From the NCBI GenBank assembly GCA_963699155.1, contig OY969414.1:192001-256000 (forward strand): a stretch of 64,000 bases of DNA. The letters run 5' to 3'. Positions 28,917 to 58,725 of the stretch are shown one piece after another. The DNA is from an uncultured Chlamydiales bacterium. Its GTDB lineage: Bacteria > Chlamydiota > Chlamydiia > Chlamydiales > JAAKFR01. The notes under the pieces are model-generated. The model was not told the DNA's origin. It saw only the letters and a list, made by a program, of their open reading frames with translations, and did no database searches. The number at the start of each line of letters is the position of its first letter. The stretch's first letter is position 1. A program made the translations under genes and the position numbers.

Positions 28917-30461
28917 TTACCCCTCTCCTTTGTGGATAATAAATACATCCTCAACGCCGCTCTCCCCCAAACCAGCATTTTTACCTATGTCGGTGTTGTT
29001 TCCTAACCTGGGGAAAATAAACAGGTCCATCACCGTTACAATCTTTTCATTGAAGATGTTAGGATCTTTACACCGAATATCCTCTTTAGCGTCACGAAAG
29101 AGAATCTCTTCGATAGGGGTAAGAGATAGATCGTTGAACCTTTCATAAGGGATTTGCAAGGCAGTGTGTCGTGGAAATTCGTACAGCTGAATCCAGGGCT
29201 TCCCTTCCAGACACCAGTTTTGGGCAAGATTATAGTAGCGATAATTGCCCGGGATCTTTGAATTGTTTAAAAGGATGATCGTGCTCCCCTTGGGAATCTC
29301 GAGCGCTTCTTTTGAAAGCTTGCTAAACCCCCCATCGCGCTTTATCAGATGTTTCACGGTTACTTGTTCTGGAGAACAATCAATATTAAATAGATGCATG
29401 ATTGCCTGAATGGCAGGTAAATTAGCGCTAAAATCGGTTTGAAATACTTCTGTATTGCTCATATCTGCCAAGAGAATCCCTCGATTTCTGTTGACTTCCA
29501 ATGGGATCTTCGCCATCGACTTTATCACAAGTCCATTCGGATAGACTTTATCGCCTTGTTGACCTTCATCGGAATTCCTGCGATAGCGGTTCACAGGCAA
29601 AATTTTGCTCCTCTGTTGCAATGAGTCTATCTCCTCCTTTAGAGTGAGTCCCCTCACAACGACACTCATACGCTTGCCTTTTGCAGATCCAGGAGAGTGA
29701 ATTCCATCCATATCGATGGGTGCGAAAGGAGAATTTGGCACTAAGGTTGCTGCTCCAGGATATTGGGGAGGATTTTGGGGGCCGGAATAAATGGCAGGTT
29801 CTACATAAAAATTGCATGCCACTTCTTTGGGATAGAGGGTAAGAATAAATCGATCTTCAGAATGTTCATCTTGGATGATCGTGCCCGAAATGGTGCCCTG
29901 AGCCATACTCCAATCGATCAATGTTACATCTTGAACGAGATAATATTCTGGAATTGGAAGAGGGTGATTTTTCAAAAAGTCATATTGTTCAATGAATTGA
30001 TCCTGATGATATTTATTTGAATCAAAATTCATGATCAAACTCACATTCCTCGAAAAACCACCTTGAATGGTGATGCCCAAGCATTTCTCAGCAATACTTC
30101 TCACCCTCTCGGCATGTTTGTCTAAGATCAATTTACCCGCTAAGTCTGCATAAATTGGATTATCATATTCATCAAAACCAAGGGGTTCTCTATATTTTGT
30201 TGCCGCGGGAGTGATCTCATGAGTAGGAAAATTTAATTCACCCGAATTGGTACTCAAGGCCATATTTTCATTCACATCATGGATGACTGAGCGGGCAAGG
30301 TCATACTTATCTTGAGTCATGTAAAAAAAGAGCTTCATGTTGCCAAATTCTGCCATACAGATCTGTGATGATCCTAGACGACCTGGAATGATAGACTCAC
30401 TATCAGCAGATAAGAATGAACAACAGAAAAAAGCCAAATAGGTAAAGATAAATTGCATCAT
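28917..30461 (-). CDS. Uncharacterised exported BGC protein, paralogue 1 of 4 (2OG-Fe(II) oxygenase-like motifs)
   Basis: Signal peptide MMQFIFTYLAFFCCSFLSA; YHQD, TLIDW, GKRMSVVVRG, PWI, LTPIEEILFR shared with the other three. Confidence 0.75.
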   Translation of the reverse strand: MMQFIFTYLAFFCCSFLSADSESIIPGRLGSSQICMAEFGNMKLFFYMTQDKYDLARSVIHDVNENMALSTNSGELNFPTHEITPAATKYREPLGFDEYDNPIYADLAGKLILDKHAERVRSIAEKCLGITIQGGFSRNVSLIMNFDSNKYHQDQFIEQYDFLKNHPLPIPEYYLVQDVTLIDWSMAQGTISGTIIQDEHSEDRFILTLYPKEVACNFYVEPAIYSGPQNPPQYPGAATLVPNSPFAPIDMDGIHSPGSAKGKRMSVVVRGLTLKEEIDSLQQRSKILPVNRYRRNSDEGQQGDKVYPNGLVIKSMAKIPLEVNRNRGILLADMSNTEVFQTDFSANLPAIQAIMHLFNIDCSPEQVTVKHLIKRDGGFSKLSKEALEIPKGSTIILLNNSKIPGNYRYYNLAQNWCLEGKPWIQLYEFPRHTALQIPYERFNDLSLTPIEEILFRDAKEDIRCKDPNIFNEKIVTVMDLFIFPRLGNNTDIGKNAGLGESGVEDVFIIHKGEG

Positions 30462-30468
30462 AAGAAAC

Positions 30469-33171
30469 CTATGAAGTGCGATTAATAAGTTCATCTACAT
30501 CGCGGTTCAAAGAGGAGATGGCTCTATTCCACCGCGCTTCTTTATCCTGTATCCATTGAGCATATCGCTGCATCTCTTGTTGGCAAAGGGTGATTTGGTG
30601 AACCAAACTGGGACTTGCTGGACCCCCACCATATTTCAAACTCTGGGTAATCTCATGGATCAGGGCCTGATCATCTTGGAAACTTGAGGGATTGATGTAT
30701 TGAGCTAATGAGACAAAAGCATCTTCTTGCATCAGATGCGCTTTTCGGATCATCTCACCTACAGCTAAATGTGCCTCTCTAAAAGAGAATGATTCTTGTA
30801 TTCTCATTTGATTGGCCACAAAGGTGGCTATCGTTAACCCTTTTCTGCTCGCTGCAACCATGTTCTTTGGAATAGCTTGTGCATGAATGATTACAAGCAT
30901 CATTAAATCTATAACATCTAAACACTCTTGCGTCACCCATTCCAAGGTGTCATAACTCGCAGAAGATACTTCTATCGAATTTCCCATAGGTACTTTATGC
31001 ATTTTTGCATATGTCGTATGAAGATTGGTGATCACATCCATTGTTTTCGTCTTGACAATTTCCAAGAGATAGGGATTTTTCTTTTGTGGCATCATGGAAG
31101 AGGAGCCGCAGAGATCATCGGGTAATTCAAAAAAATGGCTCTCTTGCATTGTCCATAACTGATAATCTTGCGCCATTCTACTAAGCGTCGTACACAAATG
31201 GGCCAAAATCCCCTTGTAGCGTAATGCAAAATCCCGATTGACAATTGCATCAAAGGCATTTTCAAAAACAGTTTCGAAACCTAAAAGAGAAGCCACATAA
31301 CGAGAATCTATAGAGATATCTGTTCCACAACCTGCACCAGCACCCAAAGGGGAATAGTTCAAATGCTTTTCCACTTGGGTTAGATCCTCTAAATTTCTCA
31401 AGATGGATTGAAGCATCGCAAGTAGATAAAAGGCATAATTCCCTGGCATGGCTGGCTGGTGCTGGCTATAGATGGGCAGAGGTATTTGATCTGATTTTTT
31501 GGCTTGAGTAAGTAAAGCCTCAACCAAGCGAATCATGCTCCAAAATATCTTCTGAAAGGATTCTCTTGACAAGAGATAAAAGAGGGCAGCATTGATATCA
31601 TTTCTCGAGCGAGCAATATGATTATTTCCCGCAATTTCGATGCCCAATTTTCCCCTTAAATGAGCCTCATAGGCGTAGTAAGTACCGCGAGAAAAATCCA
31701 GTTGGTCAAAGAAGTGGGGGAGATCTGTCTCAAAGGCACGTATCGCCTTAAGCAACAAAATGGCACTCTCAGGATGGAGTATCTGTTGTTTGTGTAGCAT
31801 TAAGATGTGAGCCATATCGATAGATGCAATACGCCTTAGCTCTTCATAACTAAAAGCCTCACTTTTCGATTTTTTAAGGAGTTGTTGCAAGAGGGGATGG
31901 GGCCCCTCTGATAACCTTCCTCGACTTGCAGATGGACTTTTAGGCTCTATCTTGACGTAGAAATGCTGCATGGCCTGATCGGCAGCTTGTTGAGATAAGA
32001 AAGAGTTAGGGGCTCGGGTAATCAAACAGCCAAATCGATCACGAAAATCGTGATGAACCGTGATATGATCTCCCACCTTTTTATTCAAATGGACTTCAAT
32101 AACCTCGCTGCTTTTCTTTAGGACGCTTTCAGAAACAAGATCGACAATTTGCCCACTCTGTTCAGCTAGGAAAAAGCGGATCGATGCACCTTGATACTTT
32201 AATGATGGAAGGTCGACTTTTTCCCCCGCATAAAGCTTCAGAATCGTTTCATAGATATCGACTTGGCAAGCGTAGCTGATGAGTTGAGGGATCATTCCAC
32301 CGGCTAGGCGAGGGTTGATCTCTATCAAAAGGAGATCTGACTCATGGAGTTTAAATTCAATATGAACGGGTCCAAAGCTAAACTGGAAAAATTTCAAAAC
32401 ACTTTTCAGGGAACCTTCTATTTTAAGCTGTAAATCTTGAGGGATCAGTGCAGGAAAATCGTGGCCTGTTTCTATAAAATATGCGGTATCAGTCGTATGC
32501 TTTCCTGTGATGCCAAGGAAGTGATATTCATTTCCACGGACGACTATTTCCGCCGAATATTCGGCGCCTGGGATATATCTTTGAATTAAGACACCTTGTT
32601 CTGCTTTCCCCCCACGCTCATTCGTCGTGATAGCTAGTAATTGTTCCACATGCTGCACTAATTCACCCAAGTGAGCGCAACGCTTCACTCCTATACTTCC
32701 TGTTCCTGCAACCGGCTTTACAACTAAGGGAAAGGTAAATTCATGACGCTGTCGAATAAGATGGTCAAGATTCTCTACAAACCAAGTTTTTGGGATCAAG
32801 AAGGGAGTCTTAGCCAGTTTCTCATAAAACACTTTCTTGTTTCTACAATCTGAAATTGCACTCACAAGATTGCCAGGAAGGCCTAAATCTTTGGCTACTG
32901 CAGCCGTCATCTCAATGAAATATTCAGAAGTAGAAAAAAGGGCTACCAAGGATGGTGAATACATTTTCAAAGTCTCTGATAGGGCCCTGAGGTCTTGTGT
33001 GTCTACGAGAATAATCTCAGCGTTCACTCTTGATAAAAATGAATATCGCTCGGGGTTAGATGTCAAAAAAAGAGCTCTGTAGCCTAATTGAAGGGCTTTC
33101 TCTAGGAAGAGCAACCCAGTACCAGTGGTATTACTTTCGATGAAGCCAATAATCTTTTTTGTCACTTGCAA
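30469..33171 (-). CDS. ATP-grasp ligase - argininosuccinate lyase-like fusion
   Basis: N-terminal IESNTTGTG, VVKPVAGTGSIGV, EINPRLAGG; C-terminal ARSRND and GSSSMMPQKKNP fumarase/ASL signature. Confidence 0.88.
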   Translation of the reverse strand: MQVTKKIIGFIESNTTGTGLLFLEKALQLGYRALFLTSNPERYSFLSRVNAEIILVDTQDLRALSETLKMYSPSLVALFSTSEYFIEMTAAVAKDLGLPGNLVSAISDCRNKKVFYEKLAKTPFLIPKTWFVENLDHLIRQRHEFTFPLVVKPVAGTGSIGVKRCAHLGELVQHVEQLLAITTNERGGKAEQGVLIQRYIPGAEYSAEIVVRGNEYHFLGITGKHTTDTAYFIETGHDFPALIPQDLQLKIEGSLKSVLKFFQFSFGPVHIEFKLHESDLLLIEINPRLAGGMIPQLISYACQVDIYETILKLYAGEKVDLPSLKYQGASIRFFLAEQSGQIVDLVSESVLKKSSEVIEVHLNKKVGDHITVHHDFRDRFGCLITRAPNSFLSQQAADQAMQHFYVKIEPKSPSASRGRLSEGPHPLLQQLLKKSKSEAFSYEELRRIASIDMAHILMLHKQQILHPESAILLLKAIRAFETDLPHFFDQLDFSRGTYYAYEAHLRGKLGIEIAGNNHIARSRNDINAALFYLLSRESFQKIFWSMIRLVEALLTQAKKSDQIPLPIYSQHQPAMPGNYAFYLLAMLQSILRNLEDLTQVEKHLNYSPLGAGAGCGTDISIDSRYVASLLGFETVFENAFDAIVNRDFALRYKGILAHLCTTLSRMAQDYQLWTMQESHFFELPDDLCGSSSMMPQKKNPYLLEIVKTKTMDVITNLHTTYAKMHKVPMGNSIEVSSASYDTLEWVTQECLDVIDLMMLVIIHAQAIPKNMVAASRKGLTIATFVANQMRIQESFSFREAHLAVGEMIRKAHLMQEDAFVSLAQYINPSSFQDDQALIHEITQSLKYGGGPASPSLVHQITLCQQEMQRYAQWIQDKEARWNRAISSLNRDVDELINRTS

Positions 33172-34214
33172 GACCCTAATACATGATCTAAAGATGATCT
33201 ATTCCAATCCAAATAGGCCCAGTCAAATGAGCCTTGGTTAATCTCCTTAAGTGAAGAAACTTTGATAGGGCTATCTACTCGCTGCATAAAGCCTTGAGTT
33301 CTCATCCACTCATCATTATAGATTGTAGAGGTGTAACGATATCCTTTATCAGGTGAGATAAAGACAACTTTCTTCTTAGGGTATTGCTTGGCAATCCACT
33401 GAGCCACTTGATAGCAGGCTCCAGTGGTCGGCCCTACATATGATCCAAAAACGGAATAGAATTCTTGTGTCAGATGGAAAGCTTGCGAGGCCGATACCCA
33501 ATGAATTTGATCGAATAGAGAGTGGATCAAATTTTTGGGCAAAATAGAGTTTCCAAGCCCTCTCAGGGCTCTTTTTCTATTTTGTAATCCAAAAAGAATA
33601 CTTCCAAAAGTATCGACACCGATAAGAGGGATAGAGGGATTATATTTTCTGAGATGCATCATCGTCCCGCACGAAGAACTTCCCGAACCGACAGAAGCGA
33701 TTAAAATCAACTCCTCACCTAAACTCTGGATGAGTTGCTCAGCAAAATCAGAATAAGCATAGAGATGATCAGGGTTATCATACTGTTGGGGCCAAAAGGC
33801 ATGGGGATGTTGAGATAAAAACTCTTTGAGGGCGTTTAAACGAGCAACCTGATGAGCTCCCTGTGGATCCTCAACGATTTGGACTTCACATTTTAAATGC
33901 TTGAGCTGTAGAAAGAGATCCTGATCAATGACAGGATCGCTCACGATATAACAAGATAGCCCCAATTCTACACACATCAATGACAAACCGAGAGCATAAG
34001 TGCCGCTTGAGGTCTCGACAACTATATCCCCTTTTTTTATCAGCTTTTCTCGTACAGCTTTCTCAAGCACATATTTTGCCGGTAAGAGTTTCATCAGAGG
34101 GAATGAAGCAATAATGAGATTTTTCCCAACTTGAACCAATGTTGGAAGGCGAATCGAATCTGAATGACTGTTAAAAACATCCTTGTGAATATCACAGCAT
34201 GTAGAAATACTCAT
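33162..34214 (-). CDS. PLP-dependent cysteine synthase/SbnA-like beta-replacement enzyme
   Basis: FPLMKLLPA (PLP Lys), ETSSGT, QQYDNP, VGSGSS, GLGNS. Confidence 0.85.
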   Translation of the reverse strand: MSISTCCDIHKDVFNSHSDSIRLPTLVQVGKNLIIASFPLMKLLPAKYVLEKAVREKLIKKGDIVVETSSGTYALGLSLMCVELGLSCYIVSDPVIDQDLFLQLKHLKCEVQIVEDPQGAHQVARLNALKEFLSQHPHAFWPQQYDNPDHLYAYSDFAEQLIQSLGEELILIASVGSGSSSCGTMMHLRKYNPSIPLIGVDTFGSILFGLQNRKRALRGLGNSILPKNLIHSLFDQIHWVSASQAFHLTQEFYSVFGSYVGPTTGACYQVAQWIAKQYPKKKVVFISPDKGYRYTSTIYNDEWMRTQGFMQRVDSPIKVSSLKEINQGSFDWAYLDWNRSSLDHVLGSCK

Positions 34215-35157
34215 AGAGGTGGCCCATATTATCCAAAACTTTTTTCAAATTGCTTAATTGATGATGGAAAGTGTTCGACTGCATATCAATCATAAATCCC
34301 AAATAGGTACCGCTATGGGCTACAATGATCCCTGGCAAACTTAACTCATCCACAAGCTCCAGAAAGATGTCTAAAAGAGATTTTGGGTTAAATTGTTGAT
34401 TAAGTTTGCTGCTTTGAGTGGCAACATGTCCTAAAAGGGCAATATCATTTTTACGAATCGCTGCCTCAACCATATCGTGAAGATTATCATACTCTTCTTT
34501 CATCTTCTGAGTATATGTGCGCTTGATCTGATTATATTGAACAGTATCCACCTCTCCACCCTCGTCAACTGCTACAATCAAAATTCCCCGAAGGTGCCCC
34601 AATGATTTTTTCAGCCTCACTTCTCGATAATAGTAGGAGACAATACCTGGATGCATCACCCCATCTGAAGGCTCTATCCCTCTCATCATCTCTTCGATCA
34701 TCTCTGGTGTCAAATTCAGAGCAAAGACCTCACTCAAAACTTTAGCCGAAGCAACTAGATCGGCTGAAGAGCTGCCCAAACCTTTTCCGATAGGAAAATG
34801 AGTCTGAATCGAAAGGATACCCCCTCTTTGCAAGTCATGTTCTTCGAAAATTTTATTCACTAACAGCTGTGATTTGTACTTTGCTCGATTGGAGACTTGT
34901 ATACCATTAATCATTGGATCGAAGACAAAGTTTACTTCAGAATAAACATTAATCGGAGATGTCACAAGAAAGGCTCTCTCATCCGTTCCAATACCTTGTA
35001 AAAATTCCCCGAAAACACCATTACAGCTGGCTTTGAAAATTTTTATATCCGTGACATCTTCAAAAACTAGACTACCCCGATCCACATGATTTCCTATCAG
35101 CTTAGCATCATCAAAAAAATCGAAAGGTAGCTTATTAATTTTTAGTTTTGCAAACAA
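34192..35157 (-). CDS. GHMP kinase, PduX/L-threonine kinase-like
   Basis: GVFGEFLQG, PIGKGLGSSSAD, IEPSDG, AHSGT. Confidence 0.85.
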   Translation of the reverse strand: MFAKLKINKLPFDFFDDAKLIGNHVDRGSLVFEDVTDIKIFKASCNGVFGEFLQGIGTDERAFLVTSPINVYSEVNFVFDPMINGIQVSNRAKYKSQLLVNKIFEEHDLQRGGILSIQTHFPIGKGLGSSSADLVASAKVLSEVFALNLTPEMIEEMMRGIEPSDGVMHPGIVSYYYREVRLKKSLGHLRGILIVAVDEGGEVDTVQYNQIKRTYTQKMKEEYDNLHDMVEAAIRKNDIALLGHVATQSSKLNQQFNPKSLLDIFLELVDELSLPGIIVAHSGTYLGFMIDMQSNTFHHQLSNLKKVLDNMGHLYEYFYML

Positions 35158-35219
35158 CGGTTTTAAATATCCGCCAAATGGTTGTGAGGAAAAATTTGGT
35201 TTGTTAGACTTGGTTCATT

Positions 35220-36686
35220 ATGAAAAATTTTAGAACCTTTTCTTTGACTCTTTTTATACCCTTTTTTGGCTGTTTGAGTCAGATGGGTTTTACACAAAAT
35301 CAAAGTTCTACTCTCCCTGGGAGAATAGGAACAAAAGAGATTTATTACACGCAACTTGGAAAAGCCAAGATCTTCTTTTATATGACTCCTGAGAAACATG
35401 CTTTAGCTCGTCAGCTTGTAAATGATGTGAACGAAAAGATGGTCCTAACGATGGATGTGACCTCTCCTCCCTGCCCTATCAATGAGGTCTCAGCGATGAC
35501 GACCAAATTTCCTGATCCTATCTCTTACAACCAAGAGGGGAACCCTATCTATGCCGACCCTATAGGACACGAATTATTTAAACAATATGCCGATAAAGTA
35601 AAAATGATCGCAGAAAACTGCTTTGGGATTGCTATCGCAGGGGTTTCTCGCGATATGAGCCTCATCGCAAACCATGATGCCTTAAAAATGCATCAAGATC
35701 ATTTTACACACCAATATGACTATTTGAGCCAACTTCCCCTTCCCATTCCTCGGTATTATCTATTCCAAGACCTGACATTGATCGATTGGCAGATGGCACA
35801 GGGGACCTTTTCAGCAACTATGGTTCAAGATGGTCAGCAAGGGGATCGCTTTTTGATGTTGTTGCTACCCACTGAAGTTGTCGGTACAGTCTACACCGAA
35901 CCGATGGTCTATAATGGACCAAATAGTGCGCCTACCTATCCTGGAGCTATTACACTTCCCCCACACACAGTGATCGCACCGATTGAATTAGACGCTAACT
36001 GGACTGTGGGCTCATGGAAAGGAAAAAGGATCAGTACCAGCATGCGTGGTGTGGTTAAGGAAGAAGAGATCGACAAACTATGTAAGAGGGCAATCTATCT
36101 TCCTGTGGACCGCCCGAAGCTGGTACATGATGGTAAAGGAAGAGAGATCTATCAATATCCCAACGGCTCCTGGTTGGGCCATTTTTCTGTTTCACTTCCC
36201 TTATGGGAAAAGAGTTCTGTCTTACGGCTGCCTGATCAAGACAACACGACGGTTTTTAAAAGAGAAGGTTTAGCCAATCGGAATCCTTATGCCTCACTAC
36301 TAGAAGAGTTGGGCATCAACGGGAATCTCACTCAAGCGTTCCACCTTATTAAACGAGATTCCGGTTTGAGTCGATTTGAAAAAATGAATTTAGCCATACC
36401 CGAGAGTGCTCAAGTCGTATTGATCAATCGTTCTCGACTACCTGCAGGCTATCTGCCTTATACCCTATCCGAAGATTGTACACAGGAGGGAAAACCCTGG
36501 ATCCATATGTGTTATTTTCCTATGAATATGGCGATGGTGCTTTCTGGAGCAAGTTTAAAGAAAATGGCACTCACACCCGTTGAAGAGATCCTTTTTAGAG
36601 ATCATAAACTCGATGAGTTGTGTGATGTAGAATCTAAACTCGTTCCCAAACTCATCTCCGAAATAGATATTTTGGTGGTGGAGTAG
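35220..36686 (+). CDS. Uncharacterised exported BGC protein, paralogue 2 of 4
   Basis: Signal peptide; MHQD...TLIDW...PPHTV...GKRISTSMRG. Confidence 0.78.
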   Translation: MKNFRTFSLTLFIPFFGCLSQMGFTQNQSSTLPGRIGTKEIYYTQLGKAKIFFYMTPEKHALARQLVNDVNEKMVLTMDVTSPPCPINEVSAMTTKFPDPISYNQEGNPIYADPIGHELFKQYADKVKMIAENCFGIAIAGVSRDMSLIANHDALKMHQDHFTHQYDYLSQLPLPIPRYYLFQDLTLIDWQMAQGTFSATMVQDGQQGDRFLMLLLPTEVVGTVYTEPMVYNGPNSAPTYPGAITLPPHTVIAPIELDANWTVGSWKGKRISTSMRGVVKEEEIDKLCKRAIYLPVDRPKLVHDGKGREIYQYPNGSWLGHFSVSLPLWEKSSVLRLPDQDNTTVFKREGLANRNPYASLLEELGINGNLTQAFHLIKRDSGLSRFEKMNLAIPESAQVVLINRSRLPAGYLPYTLSEDCTQEGKPWIHMCYFPMNMAMVLSGASLKKMALTPVEEILFRDHKLDELCDVESKLVPKLISEIDILVVE

Positions 36687-37444
36687 CTTACATCGATACA
36701 AAAAAGATCGACTACTTGAGGCGTTGGGCTGATATAAACAAGTCCGATGGCATGTCCTTCAGGCCCATTGAGAGGAACAAAATGACAGGTTCTCTCTTTT
36801 GCAATTGTCAATCGATTCTCTTCCCATACAACATTTTGCAAGAAATCGATACCATTTCCAAGTCCCATTCCTAAACTTTTGATGGTAGATTCTTTGCGTA
36901 CCCAGCACTGAAAAAATTCCCGCCGTTTCGCCTCTTCGCTCTTCTGTTCATAGATCGATTTTTTTTCATCAGGTGAAAAGTAGTGTTGGATAAGTGGTCG
37001 AAAGTCGATATCCCTGATCTCTTCGATATCGACACCCACATTAACCTCTAGCGACAATGCAATACTCAGATAATTGCAGGTATGTGAAAGGTTGAAATAG
37101 ATTCCCCACTTGGGCCCAAGTTGGGGTTTGCCATAGGGTGTATAGTGGAAGTTAAGGGATTGAGGTGATACAGATAAATATCTACCAAGTAGCTGTCTCA
37201 AACTCCCCCTACAAAAGATATATCTCCATTGATCTTCTGGCTTGACGAATTCCCTTCCCCGCTTTTTCTCATCGGGAGATAAATAGCCCCATAAGCAGCT
37301 TTCGACTCGAATATGCGAAGAAGGAATAGGGAAGAGAAAAACAGCAATTTGATTGGGCAACAATCTCTTTGGGAAATCGTCTCTACTTAGTAACCCATTT
37401 TCCATAAGATTAAGCAGATGGGCAATAAAATAGAAAAAATACAA
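36602..37444 (-). CDS. Sfp-type 4'-phosphopantetheinyl transferase (start uncertain)
   Basis: YGKP, FNLSHT, VGVDIE, WVRKES. Confidence 0.92.
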   Translation of the reverse strand: MYFFYFIAHLLNLMENGLLSRDDFPKRLLPNQIAVFLFPIPSSHIRVESCLWGYLSPDEKKRGREFVKPEDQWRYIFCRGSLRQLLGRYLSVSPQSLNFHYTPYGKPQLGPKWGIYFNLSHTCNYLSIALSLEVNVGVDIEEIRDIDFRPLIQHYFSPDEKKSIYEQKSEEAKRREFFQCWVRKESTIKSLGMGLGNGIDFLQNVVWEENRLTIAKERTCHFVPLNGPEGHAIGLVYISPTPQVVDLFCIDVSYSTTKISISEMSLGTSLDSTSHNSSSL

Positions 37445-37938
37445 TCGATCCTCATCCCTCGTTGCAGGGAGGCATGGAGACAGTAGGCGGGATCTTTTTT
37501 CAGTTGTTTGACCAACATGAGGCTACCTAATTCTGAAAAAAACCAGCAAAAAGAGACTCCTATGACAGTTGCAGTCCAAAAATCCCCCTGAATCCAATTG
37601 CAGAGGATACCTAAGAGGGCAAAAGCTCCTTCTGTGGCAGCCGCTTCCCTCTGAAATGATGTTTTAGAAGGCCACCCATAACTTTCAGCGATCTGTTCAG
37701 CGAAAGGAGAGACCCAATTTGCGATGAATGCAACAAAACCTCTCACTCCAATATTCCAGGTTAAGAATGATTTCAAAAAGGCTTCACACAATGGGGAAGA
37801 ATGGACAATGACCTTATACCCACAACTGATCAAAGTAATGGCCAGGAAAATCAACGTATAATGATTGATGAGGTAACCCAAAAGCGAGTTCGATTGTGTG
37901 ACTGCTGCATCTTTTGGGTTTTCGTAATGTGTCTCCAT
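37387..37938 (-). CDS. Membrane protein, DUF6790-like
   Basis: Several TM segments; IAESYGWP..SFQRE motif. Confidence 0.55.
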   Translation of the reverse strand: METHYENPKDAAVTQSNSLLGYLINHYTLIFLAITLISCGYKVIVHSSPLCEAFLKSFLTWNIGVRGFVAFIANWVSPFAEQIAESYGWPSKTSFQREAAATEGAFALLGILCNWIQGDFWTATVIGVSFCWFFSELGSLMLVKQLKKDPAYCLHASLQRGMRIDCIFSILLPICLILWKMGY

Positions 37939-37969
37939 ATAAAGAATCTCAGCGTTTAATATGAGGATC

Positions 37970-37997
37970 TTGCCAAAATGATATTTTTACATATACT
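37970..37997 (+). promoter_or_regulatory. Possible sigma66 promoter of the KS-peptidase-NRPS operon
   Basis: TTGCCA-N16-TATACT, ending 8 nt before the ATG at 38006. Confidence 0.35.
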
Positions 37998-38005
37998 TTT
38001 TTCCT

Positions 38006-40039
38006 ATGGCAACGCAAGAGAGCCTTAACTCCATTGCAGTTATTGGGATGTCAGGTGAATTTCCCCATTCATCCACGCTCTCCTCCTTCTGGGAGAATAT
38101 AAAAGCAGGCAGAGAGCTGATCTCATTTTTCACTGATGAAGAATGTTTGGCATCTGGAGTCCCTCTCTTCTCAGTCAAAGATTCCCGTTACATCAAAGCA
38201 AAAGGGTTTTTGGAGGATGCGGATTGCTTTGATGCAGACTTTTTCGGGTATAGTAGAAGGGAGGCAGAACTCCTCGATCCTCAACAACGACGATTGTTGG
38301 AATGGGCTTGGATTGCGCTTGAGAATGCTGGATATGATCCAGATCAATACGAGGGCTCGATTGGAGTATTTGCTTGCTCAAGCCTCAGCAGTTATTTCTA
38401 CTTTAATCTTTACCCCTATCTTTATGGGTCTTCCAGTCAACTTCAAGATGAGATGTTAATGGTGTTAGGCAATGAGAAGGATTTTGTCGCCACACGCATT
38501 TCCTACAAAATGAATTTGAAGGGCCCGAGCAAGTCAATACAAACCGCATGTTCATCATCGCTTGTAGCCGTGCATGATGCATGCCAAAGCCTTTTGAACT
38601 ATGAATGCGACATGGCAATAGCCGGGGGTGCGTCCATTACATTTCCACAGAAAGCGGGCTACACCTATTCTAAAGAAGGAATCATGTCTCCAGATGGTCA
38701 TTGCAGGGCTTTCGATCATTTAGCTGCTGGGACACTCGTGGGCAATGGTGGAGGAATAGTTGTCTTAAAAAGGCTTCAAGATGCCCTTGAAGATGGAGAT
38801 ACCATCATCGCTACGATTAAAGGTTCATATACCAATAATGATGGCGCAGAAAAAATTGGATATACTGCCCCAAGCATCAAAGGTCAATCTCATGCAATTA
38901 TAGGGGCACAATTAGCGGCTCAGGTTTCTCCCGAAACGATCACTTATGTCGAATGCCATGGTACCGCCACGCAGCTTGGGGATCCGATCGAAATCGTTGC
39001 GCTCACATCGGCCTTTCGAAAGAGCACTGAAAAAAAACAATTTTGCGCGATTGGCTCTGTGAAAACAAATATGGGTCATCTGGATGCTGCTGCAGGAGTA
39101 GCGGGTCTGATCAAAATTGTTTTGTCCCTACAGGCACGTCAGATCCCACCCAGCTTGCACTTCACACAACCCAATCCTAAGATCGATTTTGCCAACAGCC
39201 CTTTCTATGTGAATAGAGAGTTGACACCCTGGAACTCGCAGAATGCTCCCTTGAGGGCAGGGGTTAGTTCCTTTGGTATGGGAGGAACGAATGCACATGT
39301 GATTTTAGAGGAAGCCCCACTGCAACGGCCACAGCCCTCCACCTATTCTTCTTTTCTTTTGCCATTCTCGGCAAAAGATAAAAGGAGCTTGCAACATCTT
39401 CTGAGGCAATTTCTTAAGAAATTGCCAACGTTGATTTACCCGTTGGCTGATATTGCCTTTACGCTTCAGATAGGACGTAAAAGGTTCGACGAGAGAGCGG
39501 TATTTATCTGCTCTACAAAGGAAGAAGCAGCTGCACAGATCAACCTCTTTCTGGAACAAGTTATCCCCCCTCCGCTTCCCATGAAGAGTCCCTGGTATGA
39601 GGCTGCAGAAACCTGGTTAAACGGTGGGGCTATCTCTTGGAAAAACTACTACAAACAAGAAAAAAGAAGGAGAGTACCCCTTCCCACCTATCCCTTTGCT
39701 AAAACCCATTATTTTATTTCGCCCAAGCCTATAGGAGCTCTACCACAACAGAATCATGTTACTCAATCAAACATAAGCTCTTCTCAAGACATTGAAAAGC
39801 GCATGATCGAGATCTGGGAAAAAGCTCTCAAATCCTATGGAATTACTCCACAGGCTAATTTTTTTGATCTGGGTGGAGATTCCTTACTAGCTCTTGAAAT
39901 TACAGATCAAATCCGTCAGATTTTTCTTGTTGAAGTAGGCTTGAGAGATCTTTTTGACAATCCCACAGTGGATCACCTCTCATTGTTGATCAAGGAATTG
40001 ATGGATCGTGCGCTCCTCCAGCCTCTTCATTCTGCTTAA
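38006..40039 (+). CDS. Stand-alone type I PKS module KS-ACP with no AT
   Basis: DPQQR, QTACSSS (Cys), HGTAT, KTNMGHL, SSFGMGGTNAH, LPTYPF linker, GGDSL carrier; no GHSxG. Confidence 0.92.
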   Translation: MATQESLNSIAVIGMSGEFPHSSTLSSFWENIKAGRELISFFTDEECLASGVPLFSVKDSRYIKAKGFLEDADCFDADFFGYSRREAELLDPQQRRLLEWAWIALENAGYDPDQYEGSIGVFACSSLSSYFYFNLYPYLYGSSSQLQDEMLMVLGNEKDFVATRISYKMNLKGPSKSIQTACSSSLVAVHDACQSLLNYECDMAIAGGASITFPQKAGYTYSKEGIMSPDGHCRAFDHLAAGTLVGNGGGIVVLKRLQDALEDGDTIIATIKGSYTNNDGAEKIGYTAPSIKGQSHAIIGAQLAAQVSPETITYVECHGTATQLGDPIEIVALTSAFRKSTEKKQFCAIGSVKTNMGHLDAAAGVAGLIKIVLSLQARQIPPSLHFTQPNPKIDFANSPFYVNRELTPWNSQNAPLRAGVSSFGMGGTNAHVILEEAPLQRPQPSTYSSFLLPFSAKDKRSLQHLLRQFLKKLPTLIYPLADIAFTLQIGRKRFDERAVFICSTKEEAAAQINLFLEQVIPPPLPMKSPWYEAAETWLNGGAISWKNYYKQEKRRRVPLPTYPFAKTHYFISPKPIGALPQQNHVTQSNISSSQDIEKRMIEIWEKALKSYGITPQANFFDLGGDSLLALEITDQIRQIFLVEVGLRDLFDNPTVDHLSLLIKELMDRALLQPLHSA

Positions 40040-42853: not shown

Positions 42854-42856
42854 GGC

Positions 42857-53864: not shown

Positions 53865-53919
53865 CAGCGGAACGCTAGTACTCAACTGCAAAAGTCTTTG
53901 GCATTTTGGCAGCCGGGTA

Positions 53920-54651
53920 CTAGTTTAAAGGTTTCTCCATTTCCAAAATCCATGTCTCTCCTGAAACTGGGTCATGATCTACTCTAGAGAATTTAAATCC
54001 TGCTTTTTGATAGCTTTTGATCGCACGGATATTATCTGCATTCGGATCGATCACGATTTTTTGAGCCTGGTATTTTTCAAACAAGAGACGCGTGAATTTC
54101 CGTAGAATTTCGGTCCCATATCCCTTCCCCAGGTACTCTTCTTCCCCAATAAAGAGATCAATACCAAAAGTTCCTGGGGGAGATCCTGTGAAGTAGTCTA
54201 CCTCCTCCTTTTCAAGTAGATCTCGGGCATGCACATCCCAAAATTGAATATGCCCAATGGGTTTACCCTCATCGAGGATTACGAAAGGATAGTCAATTCC
54301 ATTGCCTTCTATTTTTTTGAGAATGAATTCTTTAGGTTGATAGCCATCTAAAAACCAGATATTTTTTACATGCTCTCTCTCAGCCCATTCATAATAAAGC
54401 GGAACATCTTCCAAGGTAAATTCTTTAAACGTAATATTCATCTCTTTCTGGTGACCTCCTAGTGTAAGTTTTTGTCCCCTGCTTGTAAGGGTTGAACCTC
54501 TCTTTGCCATCTGAACAAGTTTGTCGTGAAAAGCTGGTTCAGGGACTACGACCCTTCTGAGCAATGAGGCCCTAGGATTAATAGAGAACAGACGGAAAGA
54601 GAGCGCTTGCAGCGGCCGAGGGAGGAACTTTAAAGAAGTGATAGATGCCAT
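53920..54651 (-). CDS. GNAT N-acetyltransferase, AAC(6')-like; core starts at 54441, possible 70-aa N-terminal extension from 54651
   Basis: GIDLFIGEEEYLGKGYG, IDPNADNIRAIKSYQKAGF; in-frame ATG 14 nt after the amidinotransferase stop. Confidence 0.8.
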   Translation of the reverse strand: MASITSLKFLPRPLQALSFRLFSINPRASLLRRVVVPEPAFHDKLVQMAKRGSTLTSRGQKLTLGGHQKEMNITFKEFTLEDVPLYYEWAEREHVKNIWFLDGYQPKEFILKKIEGNGIDYPFVILDEGKPIGHIQFWDVHARDLLEKEEVDYFTGSPPGTFGIDLFIGEEEYLGKGYGTEILRKFTRLLFEKYQAQKIVIDPNADNIRAIKSYQKAGFKFSRVDHDPVSGETWILEMEKPLN

Positions 54652-54664
54652 AAACGTGTCGTTA

Positions 54665-55777
54665 TTAAAAGTAACTCTGTAATTCTCCTCTTCTTCGAAT
54701 ATCGAGTGTGGCACAGTGAATCCCTCCACCAAAAGAGTAAAAATGGCGGAAAGAGCAGGGGATCGGTTGAAAGCCATTCTTTTTAAGCAGTCGGATGGTT
54801 GGTTCTTCATGTTTCTCAACGACTACCCTTTTCTCATCGAGCATAAAGATATTCATCGAGACCCAAGAGCTACTGATATACATCGGATGATCACTGGGTA
54901 GGGTGGAGGGCGGGGCATACATCACATTCCATGACTTGAAAAGGGGTGGAATCACTGGCACCCTTTCTGGATGAATCAGTAGGTGGCCTGGAGCCAGTGG
55001 CATGAAAGTGGCATCCACATGCATGGGATGGGAATCATTAAACTTCAATTTGTGGATTTTAAATTGTGATCCGATCTCTCTTTGGAGCCAATCGATTCCA
55101 AAATCGTTAGTGACATTGCTTTTTTGTACAAAGATATCTCGGCCGCATCTGATGAAGTCGGCCGCATCAAAAGTTGGCTCAAATTCAGTAATGGAGTAAT
55201 CCTCCCACTCGCCCTCACCTGTCTCTCTGTAGTCTTCGTTATAGAGCGCATCGGAAAGTTGAGGTTTAGGTGCGCTGGTCCACTTTGCACCTCGATGAAA
55301 ATACTCCTTCAACAAGGATCGATAGGCATGCATTTCAAAATAACGGGAACGCCAGGCTAATGGGGATTCGATGATTTCATTTCCAATCACCAACAAAAGA
55401 TCGCGTGGCATAGCCTGATAGAGACCTCCTGGACTGCTCCATTCAGGAGTGGAAAAGGGGCGGGCGTGATCGACTTTCTCAGGCCTACGGACCTTGATGC
55501 CTTCGGCTTCCAAAATGGCTACGAATTGGTCTAGTTCTTTGTTGGCTTCCTTAATAAGCTCAGGTGGGAATGATTTTCCCTGATACTGTCGGAAAAAATG
55601 CTCTTTAGAAGTGGGAACGGTTGCTTTGACAACAGAATCATAGAGGGGAATGGTGGCACCATCGACATTGCCCACAATGACCTCTTCAAGAGGATCCCAT
55701 TCGTTAAAGGAGTTGACTATGGGCAAGTCGACCGTTTGATCTTTTTCAATTTCACGTTCTAATAGACTAAAAAGCAT
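54665..55777 (-). CDS. Amidinotransferase (L-Arg amidino donor; AGAT/StrB1/SxtG/CyrA family)
   Basis: VNSFNEWDPLEEVIVG, MPRD, FDAAD, MHVDAT, GGGIHCATLD (catalytic Cys). Confidence 0.93.
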   Translation of the reverse strand: MLFSLLEREIEKDQTVDLPIVNSFNEWDPLEEVIVGNVDGATIPLYDSVVKATVPTSKEHFFRQYQGKSFPPELIKEANKELDQFVAILEAEGIKVRRPEKVDHARPFSTPEWSSPGGLYQAMPRDLLLVIGNEIIESPLAWRSRYFEMHAYRSLLKEYFHRGAKWTSAPKPQLSDALYNEDYRETGEGEWEDYSITEFEPTFDAADFIRCGRDIFVQKSNVTNDFGIDWLQREIGSQFKIHKLKFNDSHPMHVDATFMPLAPGHLLIHPERVPVIPPLFKSWNVMYAPPSTLPSDHPMYISSSWVSMNIFMLDEKRVVVEKHEEPTIRLLKKNGFQPIPCSFRHFYSFGGGIHCATLDIRRRGELQSYF

Positions 55778-57212
55778 GGAAGACCTCTTTCCCTTGTGGA
55801 GAAAATGCAAAAATTGTGAGTTTGGAACAGATTTTCCTCCTCAGAGCTGGTTTTGAAGCACCTTCGATATCGATTTTATGGGGTCTATAGATAATTTCTT
55901 CAATCGGTGTGAGCGAGAGAGAATTAAATGTTTCACTCGGAATCAACATCGCCCTGGAGGAGGGAAGGTGGTAGAGATGAATCCAAGGTAAACCATTTTG
56001 GGTACAGTCTTGAGAGAGATTATAATAACCATATTCCTCCGGAACCTCAGATTCGTTTATGCAAATGACCAAACTATCCGGAGGGATATCGAGCATGGCA
56101 TGGGAAAGAGAAGTAAACCCAGCACCCCGTTTTACAAGATGTCTCACAAGGGGATGAAAGGAAGAAGGAACATTAAATAAGCCTCTTAAAGCCTTAATAG
56201 TTGCACCGTTTGCCTGAGATGAAAGATGAAAAATCTCGATGCCTTCTCTTTCTTTAAATGAAAGAACCTGCTTGGAGTCGGTATCGAGTAGAAAGCCGTC
56301 TGGAACCTCTTTGACAACTATTCCATTAGGATAGTGATAGCTTTCATTGTCAATCGGAATGGGCCTGCTAAATGAGAGGGAGTGGCATCTTTTTTCTAAA
56401 TTATGAATTTCTTCAGCGGGTGTAAGCCCCCTCACAACTACGCTTGTGCGTTTCCCTCTTCCTAAACTCGGGGAGACAGAGCTTTTATAATTTATAGGTG
56501 CTACGATGGTGTGTGGAGGGAGGGTGGTGGGATAGTCAGGTGGTGTGTAAGCCTCTTGAGTAACTGCTGGCTCTGCAAAAAAGATGCCTACGACCTCTTT
56601 TGGAAAGAGGGGGATCATGAATCGATCCTCAGATTCAGGATCTTGATAAATGGTGGAAGAAAAAGTCTCTTCTCCCATGTGCCAATCCATCATCGTCAGA
56701 TCTTGGGTAATATAGTATTGTTGGCCATCGGATGGATTCTGTTCGAGGAACTTATATAACTCTGTCACATCATCTAGGTGGAACCTGTTTACATCGAAGT
56801 TAATGACAAAATTTTGTCCCGAAAAGGGATGGATAAATTCCACTTCAAGAAAATGCTCAGCCAATTCTTTTAAATTGTTGGTGTAGTTTTTAAAAAGAGC
56901 CGTTCCTTTCTGATCAACAAATACCGGATTTGCGTTGATATCTTCTCCGATCGGTGTGCGAAATAGGGTGGCGAAGGGAATAATTTCCGGACCTGGAAAA
57001 TATTCAGTGTCGTAGATGATCCCTAGCATCATCTGATTTTCAAGAGCCTCTACAAACTGCCGCGAAATACGCTCCTTCTCAGGAATCATGTAAAAAAAGA
57101 GTTTCGTTTTGCCAAGTTTGACTTCATAAATTTGAGCGTTATCCTTTCTTCCAGGCAGTGGAGTAAAACTCGAAAGCAGAAAAAGGAAGGTGAGAAGGGT
57201 TATCGATTTCAT
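55767..57212 (-). CDS. Uncharacterised exported BGC protein, paralogue 3 of 4
   Basis: Signal peptide; FHLD...TMMDW...PPHTI...GKRTSVVVRG. Confidence 0.78.
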   Translation of the reverse strand: MKSITLLTFLFLLSSFTPLPGRKDNAQIYEVKLGKTKLFFYMIPEKERISRQFVEALENQMMLGIIYDTEYFPGPEIIPFATLFRTPIGEDINANPVFVDQKGTALFKNYTNNLKELAEHFLEVEFIHPFSGQNFVINFDVNRFHLDDVTELYKFLEQNPSDGQQYYITQDLTMMDWHMGEETFSSTIYQDPESEDRFMIPLFPKEVVGIFFAEPAVTQEAYTPPDYPTTLPPHTIVAPINYKSSVSPSLGRGKRTSVVVRGLTPAEEIHNLEKRCHSLSFSRPIPIDNESYHYPNGIVVKEVPDGFLLDTDSKQVLSFKEREGIEIFHLSSQANGATIKALRGLFNVPSSFHPLVRHLVKRGAGFTSLSHAMLDIPPDSLVICINESEVPEEYGYYNLSQDCTQNGLPWIHLYHLPSSRAMLIPSETFNSLSLTPIEEIIYRPHKIDIEGASKPALRRKICSKLTIFAFSPQGKEVFHAF

Positions 57213-58609
57213 AGGTTATATGAAAAAATTAAAAAGTCTAATTGGATATTCATGTTTGAGATGAGTTGTTCTTGTTTACAGGATTCGTTTTGAAACAATA
57301 TTTCCTCAACAGGAATTAAGGCTAAGTGTGTGAGCATCTCTGCAGATACTTTCATGATCCGATCAGGAGGTAAAAGATAGAGATGAATCCACGGTAAAGG
57401 AGAATCTGTACAAAACTCTGAGATTGCATAGTGATTATGTCCTGTAGGTAGATGGGAACGATTGATAATCAAGACTTCAGAGTCGGAAGGGATAGCTGCA
57501 AAAACAGACTTTAACTCACTGAATCCAGAGTCCTGTTTTATCAGATGAAAGACTGATTTCAATTCACCTTTTAAGCCAAAAAGTTCTTTAAGAATAGGTA
57601 GGAATTGAGAGTGGCCAGGTGAGCTTTCGAGGATCGTCAGGCTCTCTTTGTCATCATGCTTAATGCATCCTCCAATAGGTATAATAGGTGGCTGGGTATC
57701 AAGTTCTTTAATCACAATGCCGTTTGGATAGGTATATGTGTGAAGGTGGGGGCTATTGGCAGAGATTACAGGTCGGTTGAGAGGTAAAGGAGTCGCCCCC
57801 TGAGCAAGGGAATCGATATCACTTGCCGGGACAATCCCTTTGATCATCGCATGTAAACTTTTGCCCTTCCAAGAGCCTGAAGAGCGGCTGCTCGAGTAAT
57901 CCATTGGGGGAATAATGGTTTGTAAAGGCGGGATCCCGACTCGAGACTTTGCAATGATCGGTGTTAATGAGGCGATCAAACAGATCTCTTGGGGTCCTAC
58001 AGGTAAGAGCCAGCGGTCTTTTGATTCCTCATCTTGAATCATGAAGGCCGAGAACGTGCCTGGCGCCATTTCCCAGTCGGCAAGCGCGATTTCTTCGAAC
58101 AAGAGATAAGGAGTATGAGTGGCAGAAAGTCCATTAAGGAAAACTATCTGTTCATGAAAATTCTCTGGTTGAATCGTGAGCGCATCCTGATTGACATTCA
58201 ACGCAAGATAGCGCGAGAGACATTCCACTTTAAGATGGAGCTCTTTTTCGGTAAGACGAGCAAGTTGTGATCCATATTCATTTAAAACTGCATTTCCTAT
58301 TGGATCGGGATAAATCATTCTTCCCAGTGAATCATGAATCTCTGTGTCATCATCAAGCACATGCTTGATAAGAGGAGAATATTTAGAGGCTACAGGGAGG
58401 ATCTTTCTCTCTTTAGTTGTCAGCATGAAATGATTGTGATTCAGGCTGTAAATGAGGTCACGAGTGATCTTTTCCTTTTCAGCTGAATGATAAAAGTAGA
58501 ATTGCGTATCCCCAAACTGTGCAAAATAGATCTGCCCACTCTTGTCATGCTCTTTTGAAAATGCAGTGCATAGAAAGAAAGTTGTACAGAACAACAAACG
58601 ATAAATCAT
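57209..58609 (-). CDS. Uncharacterised exported BGC protein, paralogue 4 of 4 (putative metal ligands degenerate)
   Basis: Signal peptide; ALADW.MAPGTFS, YPNG, HLIKQDSG, PWIHLY, PVEEILF conserved, but HxD is replaced by QPE. Confidence 0.75.
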   Translation of the reverse strand: MIYRLLFCTTFFLCTAFSKEHDKSGQIYFAQFGDTQFYFYHSAEKEKITRDLIYSLNHNHFMLTTKERKILPVASKYSPLIKHVLDDDTEIHDSLGRMIYPDPIGNAVLNEYGSQLARLTEKELHLKVECLSRYLALNVNQDALTIQPENFHEQIVFLNGLSATHTPYLLFEEIALADWEMAPGTFSAFMIQDEESKDRWLLPVGPQEICLIASLTPIIAKSRVGIPPLQTIIPPMDYSSSRSSGSWKGKSLHAMIKGIVPASDIDSLAQGATPLPLNRPVISANSPHLHTYTYPNGIVIKELDTQPPIIPIGGCIKHDDKESLTILESSPGHSQFLPILKELFGLKGELKSVFHLIKQDSGFSELKSVFAAIPSDSEVLIINRSHLPTGHNHYAISEFCTDSPLPWIHLYLLPPDRIMKVSAEMLTHLALIPVEEILFQNESCKQEQLISNMNIQLDFLIFSYNL

Positions 58610-58725
58610 GAAAAAAGTGATAGCACAGCTGCCGATTTAAAAGAAGTTACGCGAAAAAAATTTTTCTTTGCAGATATTCCCTTGATTGACACAATTTGCC
58701 CTAATTTTTGGGACCTAGGCTTTGT

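Follow-up and report, generated by a model that had tools for sequence, protein, structure and literature searches.

Four genes in a 64,000-nucleotide stretch of contig OY969414.1 from an uncultured Chlamydiales bacterium (the window) belong to a rare, unannotated family within one NRPS/PKS cluster, and the encoded proteins are probably exported and, as modelled, look like paired Fe/2OG oxygenases. As the best explanation we favour, with slightly better than even confidence, exported two-domain Fe/2OG-oxygenase dimers that tailor the NRPS/PKS product. The initial annotation had proposed a family of extracytoplasmic tailoring oxygenases. This interpretation is supported by the predicted fold, the order of the residues and the NRPS/PKS context, and none of its refuting conditions that were examined was borne out; metal and 2OG binding, export, dimer composition, substrate and reaction are inferred.

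All four open reading frames of the initial annotation are present (Table 1), and their paralogy was borne out by end-to-end alignment to P1 (28-40% identity) and by family HMM scores with E 1e-145 to 1e-199, which are far above chance. They are the only copies of the family in the 2.4 Mb genome. The likely start of P1 is that of the database gene call P0019 with 514 aa. The stop codon of P4 and the start codon of P3 overlap in ATGA, and strand and adjacency of the reading frames would agree with the proposed distribution over three transcription units.

Table 1. Features of the cluster and of the modelled protein P0002 (positions in the window).
Feature	Position	Strand	Description
Paralogue 1 (P1, P0001)	28917..30494	-	525 aa, clade A; site H-D-N-R-S-R; likely start 30461
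Building-block genes: GHMP kinase, SbnA-like PLP enzyme, ATP-grasp/argininosuccinate-lyase fusion	30469..35157	-	upstream of P1, same strand
Paralogue 2 (P2, P0002)	35220..36686	+	488 aa, clade B; full site H158 D160 H249 R270 S272 R276; modelled protein
N-terminal DSBH domain of P0002 (residues 30-296)	35307..36107	+	Fe/2OG-oxygenase-like fold, model
HxD codons (H158-Q-D160) of P0002	35691..35699	+	three-residue strand of model
Distal His codon (H249) of P0002	35964..35966	+	next-to-last barrel strand, model
R-x5-R codons (R270-I-S-T-S-M-R276) of P0002	36027..36047	+	start of last barrel strand, model
C-terminal DSBH/cupin-like domain of P0002 (residues 297-488)	36108..36683	+	model; no metal triad; K378, N403 invariant
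Phosphopantetheinyl transferase	36602..37444	-	
KS-ACP polyketide module	38006..40039	+	
ClbP-like S12 peptidase	40008..41426	+	signal-like N-terminus, beta-lactamase fold, three C-terminal membrane helices
NRPS, 3160 aa	42857..52339	+	first domains: acyl-AMP-ligase-like, carrier
GNAT acetyltransferase, AAC(6')-like	53920..54819	-	candidate self-resistance gene
Amidinotransferase	54665..55810	-	directly downstream of P3; matches SxtG (E 1e-123), HsvA, AGAT
Paralogue 3 (P3, P0003)	55767..57212	-	481 aa, clade A; full site
Paralogue 4 (P4, P0004)	57209..58609	-	466 aa, clade B; six site residues all replaced (QEQSHK)
Further NRPS (C-A-T-C-A...)	58708..63999	+	extends past window end

The sequence motifs described as common to the paralogues were recovered in part: YPNG and PWI are found in 4/4 proteins, but FFYM, DRF, HLIKRD.G and LTP.EEILFR are exact in only two or three and changed in the others, e.g., to FYFYH, DRW and LIPVEEILFQ in P4 and to HLVKRGAG in P3. 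The predicted site motifs were found as described. P2 and P3 carry the HxD...H triad (HQD/HLD and PPHT) followed by KRISTSMR/KRTSVVVR, and P1 keeps HQD and an Arg motif (KRMSVVVR) but shows Asn where the distal His would stand. In P4 the corresponding positions read Q.E, Gln and KSLHAMIK, so that none of the three triad residues is left. The missing distal His of P1 and the loss of all ligands in P4 count against an oxygenase.

Across the family, which comprises 66 representatives among 1.84 billion proteins and is absent from 60/60 genomes of relatives examined, all six site residues are kept in 45 of the 65 full-length members, five are kept in 2, and several are lost jointly in 18. These losses are independent, as the tree requires at least 6-7 separate events, and in the single-copy clades (C, D and actinobacterial) the site is almost always intact. 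Four residues, W190, G268, K378 and N403, are invariant (65/65). Searches against Pfam gave a meaningful match for 0 of 65 members with E up to 5, NCBIfam had no match for the four window copies, and a PDB profile search returned a single unrelated match (E 0.14). Likewise, hhalign found no match to AlkB, to YbiX, to an alignment of 14 chlamydial PF13640 sequences or to an alignment of 120 AlkB sequences. No sequence method used links the family to 2OG oxygenases, which counts against the oxygenase reading.

The link comes from structure prediction. The AlphaFold (AF2) model of whole P2 reached pLDDT 90.2 and pTM 0.88, and the model of its N-domain pLDDT 95.3. As anticipated in the initial annotation the predicted structures contain a DSBH: with the whole model Foldseek found Tpa1 and OGFOD1 as best matches (E 4.5e-7), and with the N-domain AlkB/ALKBH3, Tpa1 and P3H1 were among the best matches, together with some virus-capsid jelly rolls. 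The best 50 VIA rows of the N-domain are all Fe/2OG oxygenases with Z 7.5-10.4, where unmatched models typically give Z 7-8, so that values of about 10 are only moderately above background, a point that, like the jelly rolls, counts against the oxygenase reading. ALKBH3 comes first (Z 10.4, rmsd 3.3, 175 aligned), followed by AlkB (Z 10.2, rmsd 3.8, 179 aligned). In the model, both the order of HxD, the distal His and the basic residue of the last strand and the strands on which they lie are as expected, RxSxxxR opening the last strand, and these are the residues that are kept or lost jointly across the family. The C-terminal domain, previously called unknown, is predicted to be a second, triad-less DSBH as in Tpa1/OGFOD1. 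Its structural matches are 2rg4, C-P4H and cupins (Z 7.4-9.6), and it has no conserved His pair (H375 in 28/65 members).

Among known enzymes AlkB/ALKBH2-3 (PF13532) match the N-domain best, with a Foldseek E of 3.9e-4 and TM 0.41-0.55. E. coli AlkB has HQD131-133, H187 and R204-x5-R210, and the family likewise has HQD, a distal His and R-x5-R on the predicted last strand. The spacing of R270/R276 in P2 equals that of R204/R210 in AlkB, and the VIA alignment ends with N-domain model position 249 at AlkB 212, which would place R276 at R210 and R270 at R204 if the strand is ungapped. However, HxD and His are 91 residues apart in the family and 56 in AlkB, neither HMM nor hhalign gave a match, and in contrast to AlkB, an enzyme of DNA repair, the family has a second, C-terminal barrel and a putative signal peptide and lies in a biosynthetic cluster. 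The eukaryotic ribosomal-protein prolyl hydroxylases Tpa1/OGFOD1/Ofd1 combine a catalytic N-terminal DSBH with a triad-less C-terminal DSBH, as in the family model. For enzymes of this type VIA aligns 286-316 residues of the P2 model (Z 9.3 and 8.5), but the two domains are oriented differently (rmsd 14-18 A when both are included). They share neither sequence similarity nor a Pfam match with the family, which is bacterial, cluster-linked and putatively exported.

The location of the genes in a biosynthetic cluster is not restricted to the window. Of the 11 foreign contigs that offer 5 kb or more of surrounding sequence, 9 have NRPS/PKS genes at most 10 kb from the homologues, which answers the question of co-occurrence raised in the initial annotation, and this linkage spans MAGs of Chlamydiae and Verrucomicrobia and one actinobacterium. 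At one of two actinobacterial loci an NRPS was not found within 10 kb; the actinobacterial members form a core of three genes together with those for a radical SAM enzyme and an ATP-grasp ligase. GNAT genes occur in the window and at loci L009, L010 and L013, and genes for NpmA-like 16S rRNA methyltransferases at L009 and L010.

All four paralogues start with a hydrophobic N-terminus, which is followed by a conserved LPGR that opens the putative mature part. Signal peptides were assessed solely from hydropathy, with a crude rule by which 46 of 60 members with complete N-terminus, including the four window proteins, have a hydrophobic start, against 9 of 33 other ORFs of the window. These starts have a charged n-region and A-x-A-like ends immediately ahead of LPGR, a strict lipobox occurs in 1/46, and by the same rule the N-termini of most non-actinobacterial members are Sec-like. 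A natural fusion to an arginine/agmatine-deiminase-type domain (L037) also begins with a hydrophobic peptide. The hydrophobic start is absent from six members with short N-termini and from the actinobacterial clade, and the apparent lack of a signal peptide in the latter speaks against export being common to the whole family. Moreover, the supply of 2OG, Fe(II) and reductant in the bacterial periplasm is not a given, which counts against periplasmic oxygenases.

The idea of export and a prodrug gains weight from the ClbP-like peptidase in the same cluster. This S12 peptidase has its beta-lactamase fold at residues 25-341 and membrane helices at 372-390, 401-419 and 444-462, which we take to be the architecture of ClbP, and its signal-like start and three C-terminal helices recall ClbP-type pathways (colibactin, xenocoumacin and related). 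A periplasmic oxygenase partner is not known from such prodrug pathways, and a literature search gave no report that links a dioxygenase to ClbP-type prodrug activation in the periplasm.

The family contains two ancient clades, A and B. An A member and a B member are found on one and the same contig in L008 and, two times over, in the window; this is probably also the case for two metagenome contigs whose recorded lengths are equal. The P3+P4 complex prediction scored 0.83 against 0.00 for the best of 3 controls, a level that 116 of 157 solved complexes but also 2 of 215 mismatched pairs attained. Near relatives of a true partner pass as well, so the score fits a heterodimer or a family homodimer alike. 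The runs had at least 71% of contacts in common with partner pLDDT of at least 76. For the proposed active/inactive heteromers this means that the recurrent A/B pairs and the passed prediction are in favour, but the prediction cannot separate heterodimer from homodimer.

In the explanation that we favour, the N-terminal DSBH would bear an AlkB-like Fe(II)/2-oxoglutarate site formed by HxD, the distal His and R-x-S-x3-R, and the C-terminal DSBH would lack metal ligands, following the domain plan of Tpa1/OGFOD1. After export via Sec-type signal peptides the proteins would form pseudo-symmetric dimers, with the conserved C-domain motif of one chain (LTPxEE, K378 region) packed against the GSxKGK loop of the other, immediately ahead of the putative 2OG-binding Arg. 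P2 and P3 would be the catalytic subunits, and the impaired P1 and dead P4 would be clade partners retained for the dimer, giving A/B heterodimers of P3/P4 and probably P1/P2. Their substrate may be an exported cationic, guanidino-bearing NRPS/PKS product, oxidised, most likely by hydroxylation, in the compartment where the ClbP-like peptidase would take off the prodrug cap. More tentatively, and with clearly less confidence, we suggest that the last steps towards a ribosome-directed antibiotic of prodrug type may take place outside the cytoplasm of an obligate intracellular bacterium. Once the compound has been exported and its cap removed, it would be oxidised with host-derived 2-oxoglutarate by A/B heterodimers in the periplasm, each made of a live Fe/2OG subunit and a dead paralogue that gives part of its partner's site in trans. 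If true, both the compartment and the quaternary logic would be new for tailoring by 2OG oxygenases.

The joint losses of site residues also have to be considered in the light of exported binding, chaperone or immunity proteins, whose barrels would hold the antibiotic or prodrug in the periplasm without oxidation. The 18 members without the ligand set, P4 among them, retain the fold and the invariant residues, the most conserved residues fall outside the putative metal site, and cupin/DSBH folds, with cupins among the C-domain matches, often are binding modules. However, the complete site in 45 of 65 members, its near-constant retention in single-copy clades and the all-or-nothing losses, as expected of a working active site, make such a role unlikely. 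Somewhat less likely still, the same periplasmic oxygenases could serve self-resistance by inactivating active drug that re-enters the producer. The compartment would then be common to oxygenases and prodrug peptidase, and the resistance-type neighbours (GNAT, NpmA-like methyltransferases) would fit. On the other side, nothing separates this role from tailoring, and the actinobacterial members are of cytoplasmic type and sit in a biosynthetic-looking core.

A similarly low probability is given to ordinary cytoplasmic or membrane-anchored tailoring oxygenases, whose hydrophobic N-terminus would either stay uncleaved as an anchor or result from a wrongly called gene start. The cytoplasmic origin of 2OG, the crudeness of the hydropathy rule and the members without hydrophobic start would be in line with this, but the prevalence of hydrophobic starts, their charged n-regions, the A-x-A-like ends directly ahead of LPGR and the near absence of a strict lipobox speak against it. 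Very improbable, finally, are secreted hydroxylases of host or bacterial proteins, comparable to Tpa1/OGFOD1 acting on a ribosomal protein, with only incidental linkage to the cluster. In favour are that these two are the top whole-model Foldseek matches, that the host organism comes from an intracellular lineage and that homologous loci occur in Chlamydiae MAGs; against it, the genes share operons with biosynthetic ones and the NRPS/PKS linkage extends over MAGs of Chlamydiae and Verrucomicrobia and one actinobacterium.

PiuC/YbiX and prolyl-4-hydroxylase-type enzymes (PF13640, including collagen P4H, which acts outside the cytosol) match the predicted DSBH with Z 8.4-10.1. There was no profile match between the family and the chlamydial PF13640 alignment, and no PF13640 gene was found in the genome of the window. 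Most of the chlamydial PF13640 proteins (n=14) have hydrophobic N-termini, as judged by eye.

Computation supports the overall reading of the initial annotation, in which four exported paralogues (P1 to P4, or P0001 to P0004) represent an undescribed family of extracytoplasmic tailoring oxygenases, perhaps acting as active/inactive heteromers. The family is tied to NRPS/PKS clusters, has repeatedly been turned into pseudoenzymes and is probably exported and dimeric. All four open reading frames are present as proposed, and their paralogy is borne out by 28-40% identity over the whole length and by family HMM E-values of 1e-145 to 1e-199. No other copies occur in the 2.4 Mb single-contig genome. 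The sequence motifs said to be shared are real, but P3 or P4 deviates from several of them. For each paralogue, the states of HxD, the distal His and RxSxxxR were described correctly. The stop codon of P4 and the start codon of P3 overlap (ATGA), and a promoter/terminator scan found sites no more numerous than in shuffles. The four are ancient paralogues; in a maximum-likelihood tree each of them stands closer to proteins from elsewhere than to the other window copies.

Coordinates of the family genes and associated features in the window and at other loci
Feature	Position	Strand	Remarks
P1 (P0001)	28917-30494	-	525 aa; 514 aa from start 30461, as in the database gene call
P2 (P0002)	35220-36686	+	488 aa
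P3 (P0003)	55767-57212	-	481 aa
P4 (P0004)	57209-58609	-	466 aa
GHMP kinase, SbnA-like PLP enzyme, ATP-grasp/argininosuccinate-lyase-like fusion	30469-35157	-	Fusion: NF002563, 761 bits
S12 peptidase, beta-lactamase fold	40008-41426	+	Signal-like start, three C-terminal membrane helices
Two paralogous membrane proteins flanking the 3160-aa NRPS	41423-42853, 52311-53864	+	28% identity, E 3e-66
Amidinotransferase	54665-55810	-	PDB: SxtG E 1e-123, HsvA, AGAT; missed by Pfam at E 1e-3
UVR-motif protein, then ATP:guanido phosphotransferase	22511-24099	+	Resembles McsA/McsB pair
516-aa ORF of similar length to the flanking membrane proteins	L013:6280-7830		No Pfam match
Family protein/PAD_porph fusion	L037:8007-10613		
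NpmA-like 16S rRNA (A1408) methyltransferases	L009:17218-17931, L010:18033-18788		
Actinobacterial three-gene core	L016:9572-13354, L017:9485-13334		

The family is rare and escapes the usual annotation. Pfam and NCBIfam gave zero matches for the four window proteins, and at a Pfam threshold as loose as E 5 none of 65 full-length members matched a 2OG family. A word-index search returned 29 family clusters among 5.8 billion and an exhaustive profile search 66 representatives among 1.84 billion proteins; the genomes of 60 relatives from the same genus, family or order contained no copy. The sole match of a PDB profile search was nlh1 (E 0.14). Comparisons by hhalign were negative as well. They covered single sequences of AlkB and YbiX from E. 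coli, a set of 14 chlamydial PF13640 proteins and a set of 120 AlkB sequences, the last a poor profile since none of its sequences is less than 77% identical to the query. The ESM Atlas gave clusters without names at a top score of 0.87. In the literature nothing was found on this protein family, and subscription journals and supplements may hold more. Passages of PMC9666466 mention NRPS homologues common to one MAG found here and a cultured chlamydia, and those of PMC13229535 and PMC10132079 NRPS clusters in general terms only. With neither Pfam nor NCBIfam recognising the family, its genes will be overlooked as tailoring enzymes in cluster mining.

From an alignment of 30 sequences, AlphaFold modelled P0002 at pLDDT 90.2 and pTM 0.88, with disorder limited to the first 28 residues. 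When the whole model was compared with the PDB by Foldseek, the prolyl hydroxylases Tpa1 and OGFOD1, which like the model have two barrels, ranked first (E 4.5e-7 to 1e-5), followed by bicupins. VIA-align splits the model into two domains. The first, residues ~32-283, aligns at Z ~10 with 2OG oxygenases such as PiuC, AlkB and ALKBH3. The second, residues ~298-488, reaches Z 7.4-9.6 with 2rg4, collagen and transmembrane P4H, BcmC, pirin and cupins. The C-terminal domain, previously listed as unknown, is a second double-stranded beta-helix. Refolded alone with 65 sequences, the N-domain reached pLDDT 95.3, and all 50 rows listed by VIA are Fe/2OG oxygenases (Z 10.4 to 7.5, 153-196 residues aligned). 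Its top Foldseek matches are ALKBH3, ALKBH2, AlkB, P3H1 and Tpa1 (E ~4e-4, TM up to 0.55), with picornavirus jelly rolls mixed into the list. Since models without a true match typically reach Z 7-8 in VIA, the evidence for the fold is the uniformity and coverage of the hit list, not the height of Z. These models support the view that the family is a new branch of the Fe/2OG-oxygenase fold, very divergent and built on a two-barrel plan like that of Tpa1/OGFOD1.

In the N-domain model the candidate site residues occupy the strand positions expected in this fold for the facial triad and for the base that binds 2OG. H158-Q-D160 forms a three-residue strand, and the distal H249 belongs to the penultimate strand of the barrel. 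The last strand begins with R270, and R276 follows six residues on. E. coli AlkB (K-12 record) carries HQD at 131-133, H187 and R204-x5-R210. The VIA alignment ends with model residue 249 on AlkB 212; provided that the last strand has no gaps, R276 would pair with AlkB R210 and R270 with R204. The geometry of the metal site and the activity of the proteins are inferred, as are their localisation, choice of partner and substrate.

All six site residues (H, D, H, R, S, R, including S272) are kept in 45 of the 65 full-length members. Five are kept in two members, among them P0001 with Asn in place of the distal His, and 18 have lost several at once, P0004 retaining none. According to the maximum-likelihood tree this degenerate state arose at least 6-7 times independently. 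Nine of the 18 fall in the two ancient clades A and B, eight in a separate clade near the root of the drawing and one in clade C. Members of clade D and of the actinobacterial clade, which like clade C occur as single copies per locus, are intact or one residue short. Every one of the 65 members has W190, G268, K378 and N403, and D189, D209, Y313, E455/E456 and R460 are nearly invariant. The recurrent loss of the set as a whole is an argument for a single functional unit of six residues, and for some other role that maintains the dead copies.

Members of clades A and B co-occur. Of these two supported clades, A (13 rows) includes P1 and P3 and B (15 rows) P2 and P4, so that the window holds a B-A tandem (P4-P3) besides P1 (A) and P2 (B). 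At locus L008 a B gene is likewise followed in tandem by an A gene, and P0011 (A)/P0012 (B) and P0016 (A)/P0022 (B) probably co-occur as well, as the recorded contigs are of equal size within each pair. The complex prediction for mature P3 and P4 scored 0.83, against 0.00 for the best of three controls, and passed. Among solved complexes 116 of 157 attain that mark, among mismatched pairs 2 of 215. At least 71% of the contacts were common to the runs, with partner pLDDT of at least 76. The predicted interface is pseudo-symmetric, C-domain against C-domain, and the LTPxEE and K361/K358 regions of one chain contact the GSxKGK loop of the other, just before the 2OG-binding Arg. Such an interface role would account for residues of these three regions being invariant even in dead copies. 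The prediction fits an active/dead heterodimer or a family-wide homodimer alike and cannot separate the two. Joint loss of the ligands with predicted dimer-interface residues fixed makes the family a clean natural system for the study of pseudoenzyme partners. A second active/dead pairing system may exist among the members of 694-757 aa, of which P0036, P0038 and P0039 are intact and P0049, P0055, P0058, P0062 and P0068 degenerate. These long members carry an unannotated N-terminal extension of ~280-310 residues; Pfam gave no match to the 280-aa extension.

A charged and then hydrophobic N-terminus was found in all four window proteins and in 46 of the 60 members with a complete N-terminus, by a crude rule that 9 of the 33 other window ORFs also pass. 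The hydrophobic stretch ends shortly ahead of a conserved LPGR. A lipoprotein reading was rejected, as a strict lipobox occurs in one of 46 N-termini. A clade of ~540-aa proteins, including the Glycomyces and Saccharothrix copies, has instead a soluble 108-aa extension without Pfam match; the copies at the actinobacterial loci L016 and L017 show a QQFF(R/H)H motif in it and lack a signal peptide. The S12 peptidase of the window cluster, with a homologue in L013, has a layout that we take to be the plan of the prodrug peptidase ClbP, and a ClbP-like peptidase gives the pathway an extracytoplasmic step. If the family is active and exported, oxidative tailoring of the nonribosomal product could follow export, beside prodrug activation, which would alter how such clusters are read and reconstituted.

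The cluster extends from ~28.9 kb to past the window end and also holds a PPTase, DUF6790, a KS-ACP module, a GNAT and two NRPS genes, one of 3160 aa. An rRNA or other RNA in the ORF-poor window end was rejected, since Rfam gave no match and a long NRPS ORF accounts for the stretch. The GHMP kinase, SbnA-like and ATP-grasp-lyase genes may provide a diaminopropionate-type route in which the lyase replaces SbnB. The membrane proteins flanking the 3160-aa NRPS, each with 3-4 hydrophobic helices and neither with a Pfam or NCBIfam family, may be the exporter. The TTG start of the amidinotransferase overlaps the end of P3, and translation more likely begins at an internal Met 11 codons further on.

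Eleven foreign contigs offer at least 5 kb of context, and 9 of them have NRPS/PKS genes within 10 kb of the family gene; the exceptions are L015, where the match is at the contig end, and L017. A PAD_porph deiminase follows the family gene in L009, L010 and L013, and in L037 a natural fusion joins a family protein (~1-467) to such a domain (476-868) behind one signal-like N-terminus. Universal coupling to this enzyme was rejected, as PF04371 matches nothing in the window's genome. Lysine 2,3-aminomutase is carried by L012, L014, L036 and L038, and the common core of L016 and L017 consists of the family gene, a radical SAM enzyme and a D-Ala-D-Ala-ligase-like ATP-grasp. The NpmA-type methyltransferases in related clusters hint at products that target the small ribosomal subunit. 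Together, the amidinotransferase/deiminase, beta-lysine, diaminopropionate-type, GNAT and 16S A1408 methyltransferase genes point to uncharacterised cationic, guanidino-bearing peptide antibiotics from chlamydiae and relatives, on which the family would act.

G+C is 0.46-0.52 in window positions 1-24000 against 0.40-0.47 across the cluster (24000-64000), and this shift, with the absence of the family from the 60 relatives, fits horizontal acquisition. Genes for PF13640 prolyl-hydroxylase-like proteins occur in 13 of 151 genomes of the phylum (L020-L033). Most of the 14 proteins have hydrophobic, signal-like N-termini by eye, so exported 2OG-oxygenase-like proteins may be a wider chlamydial theme.
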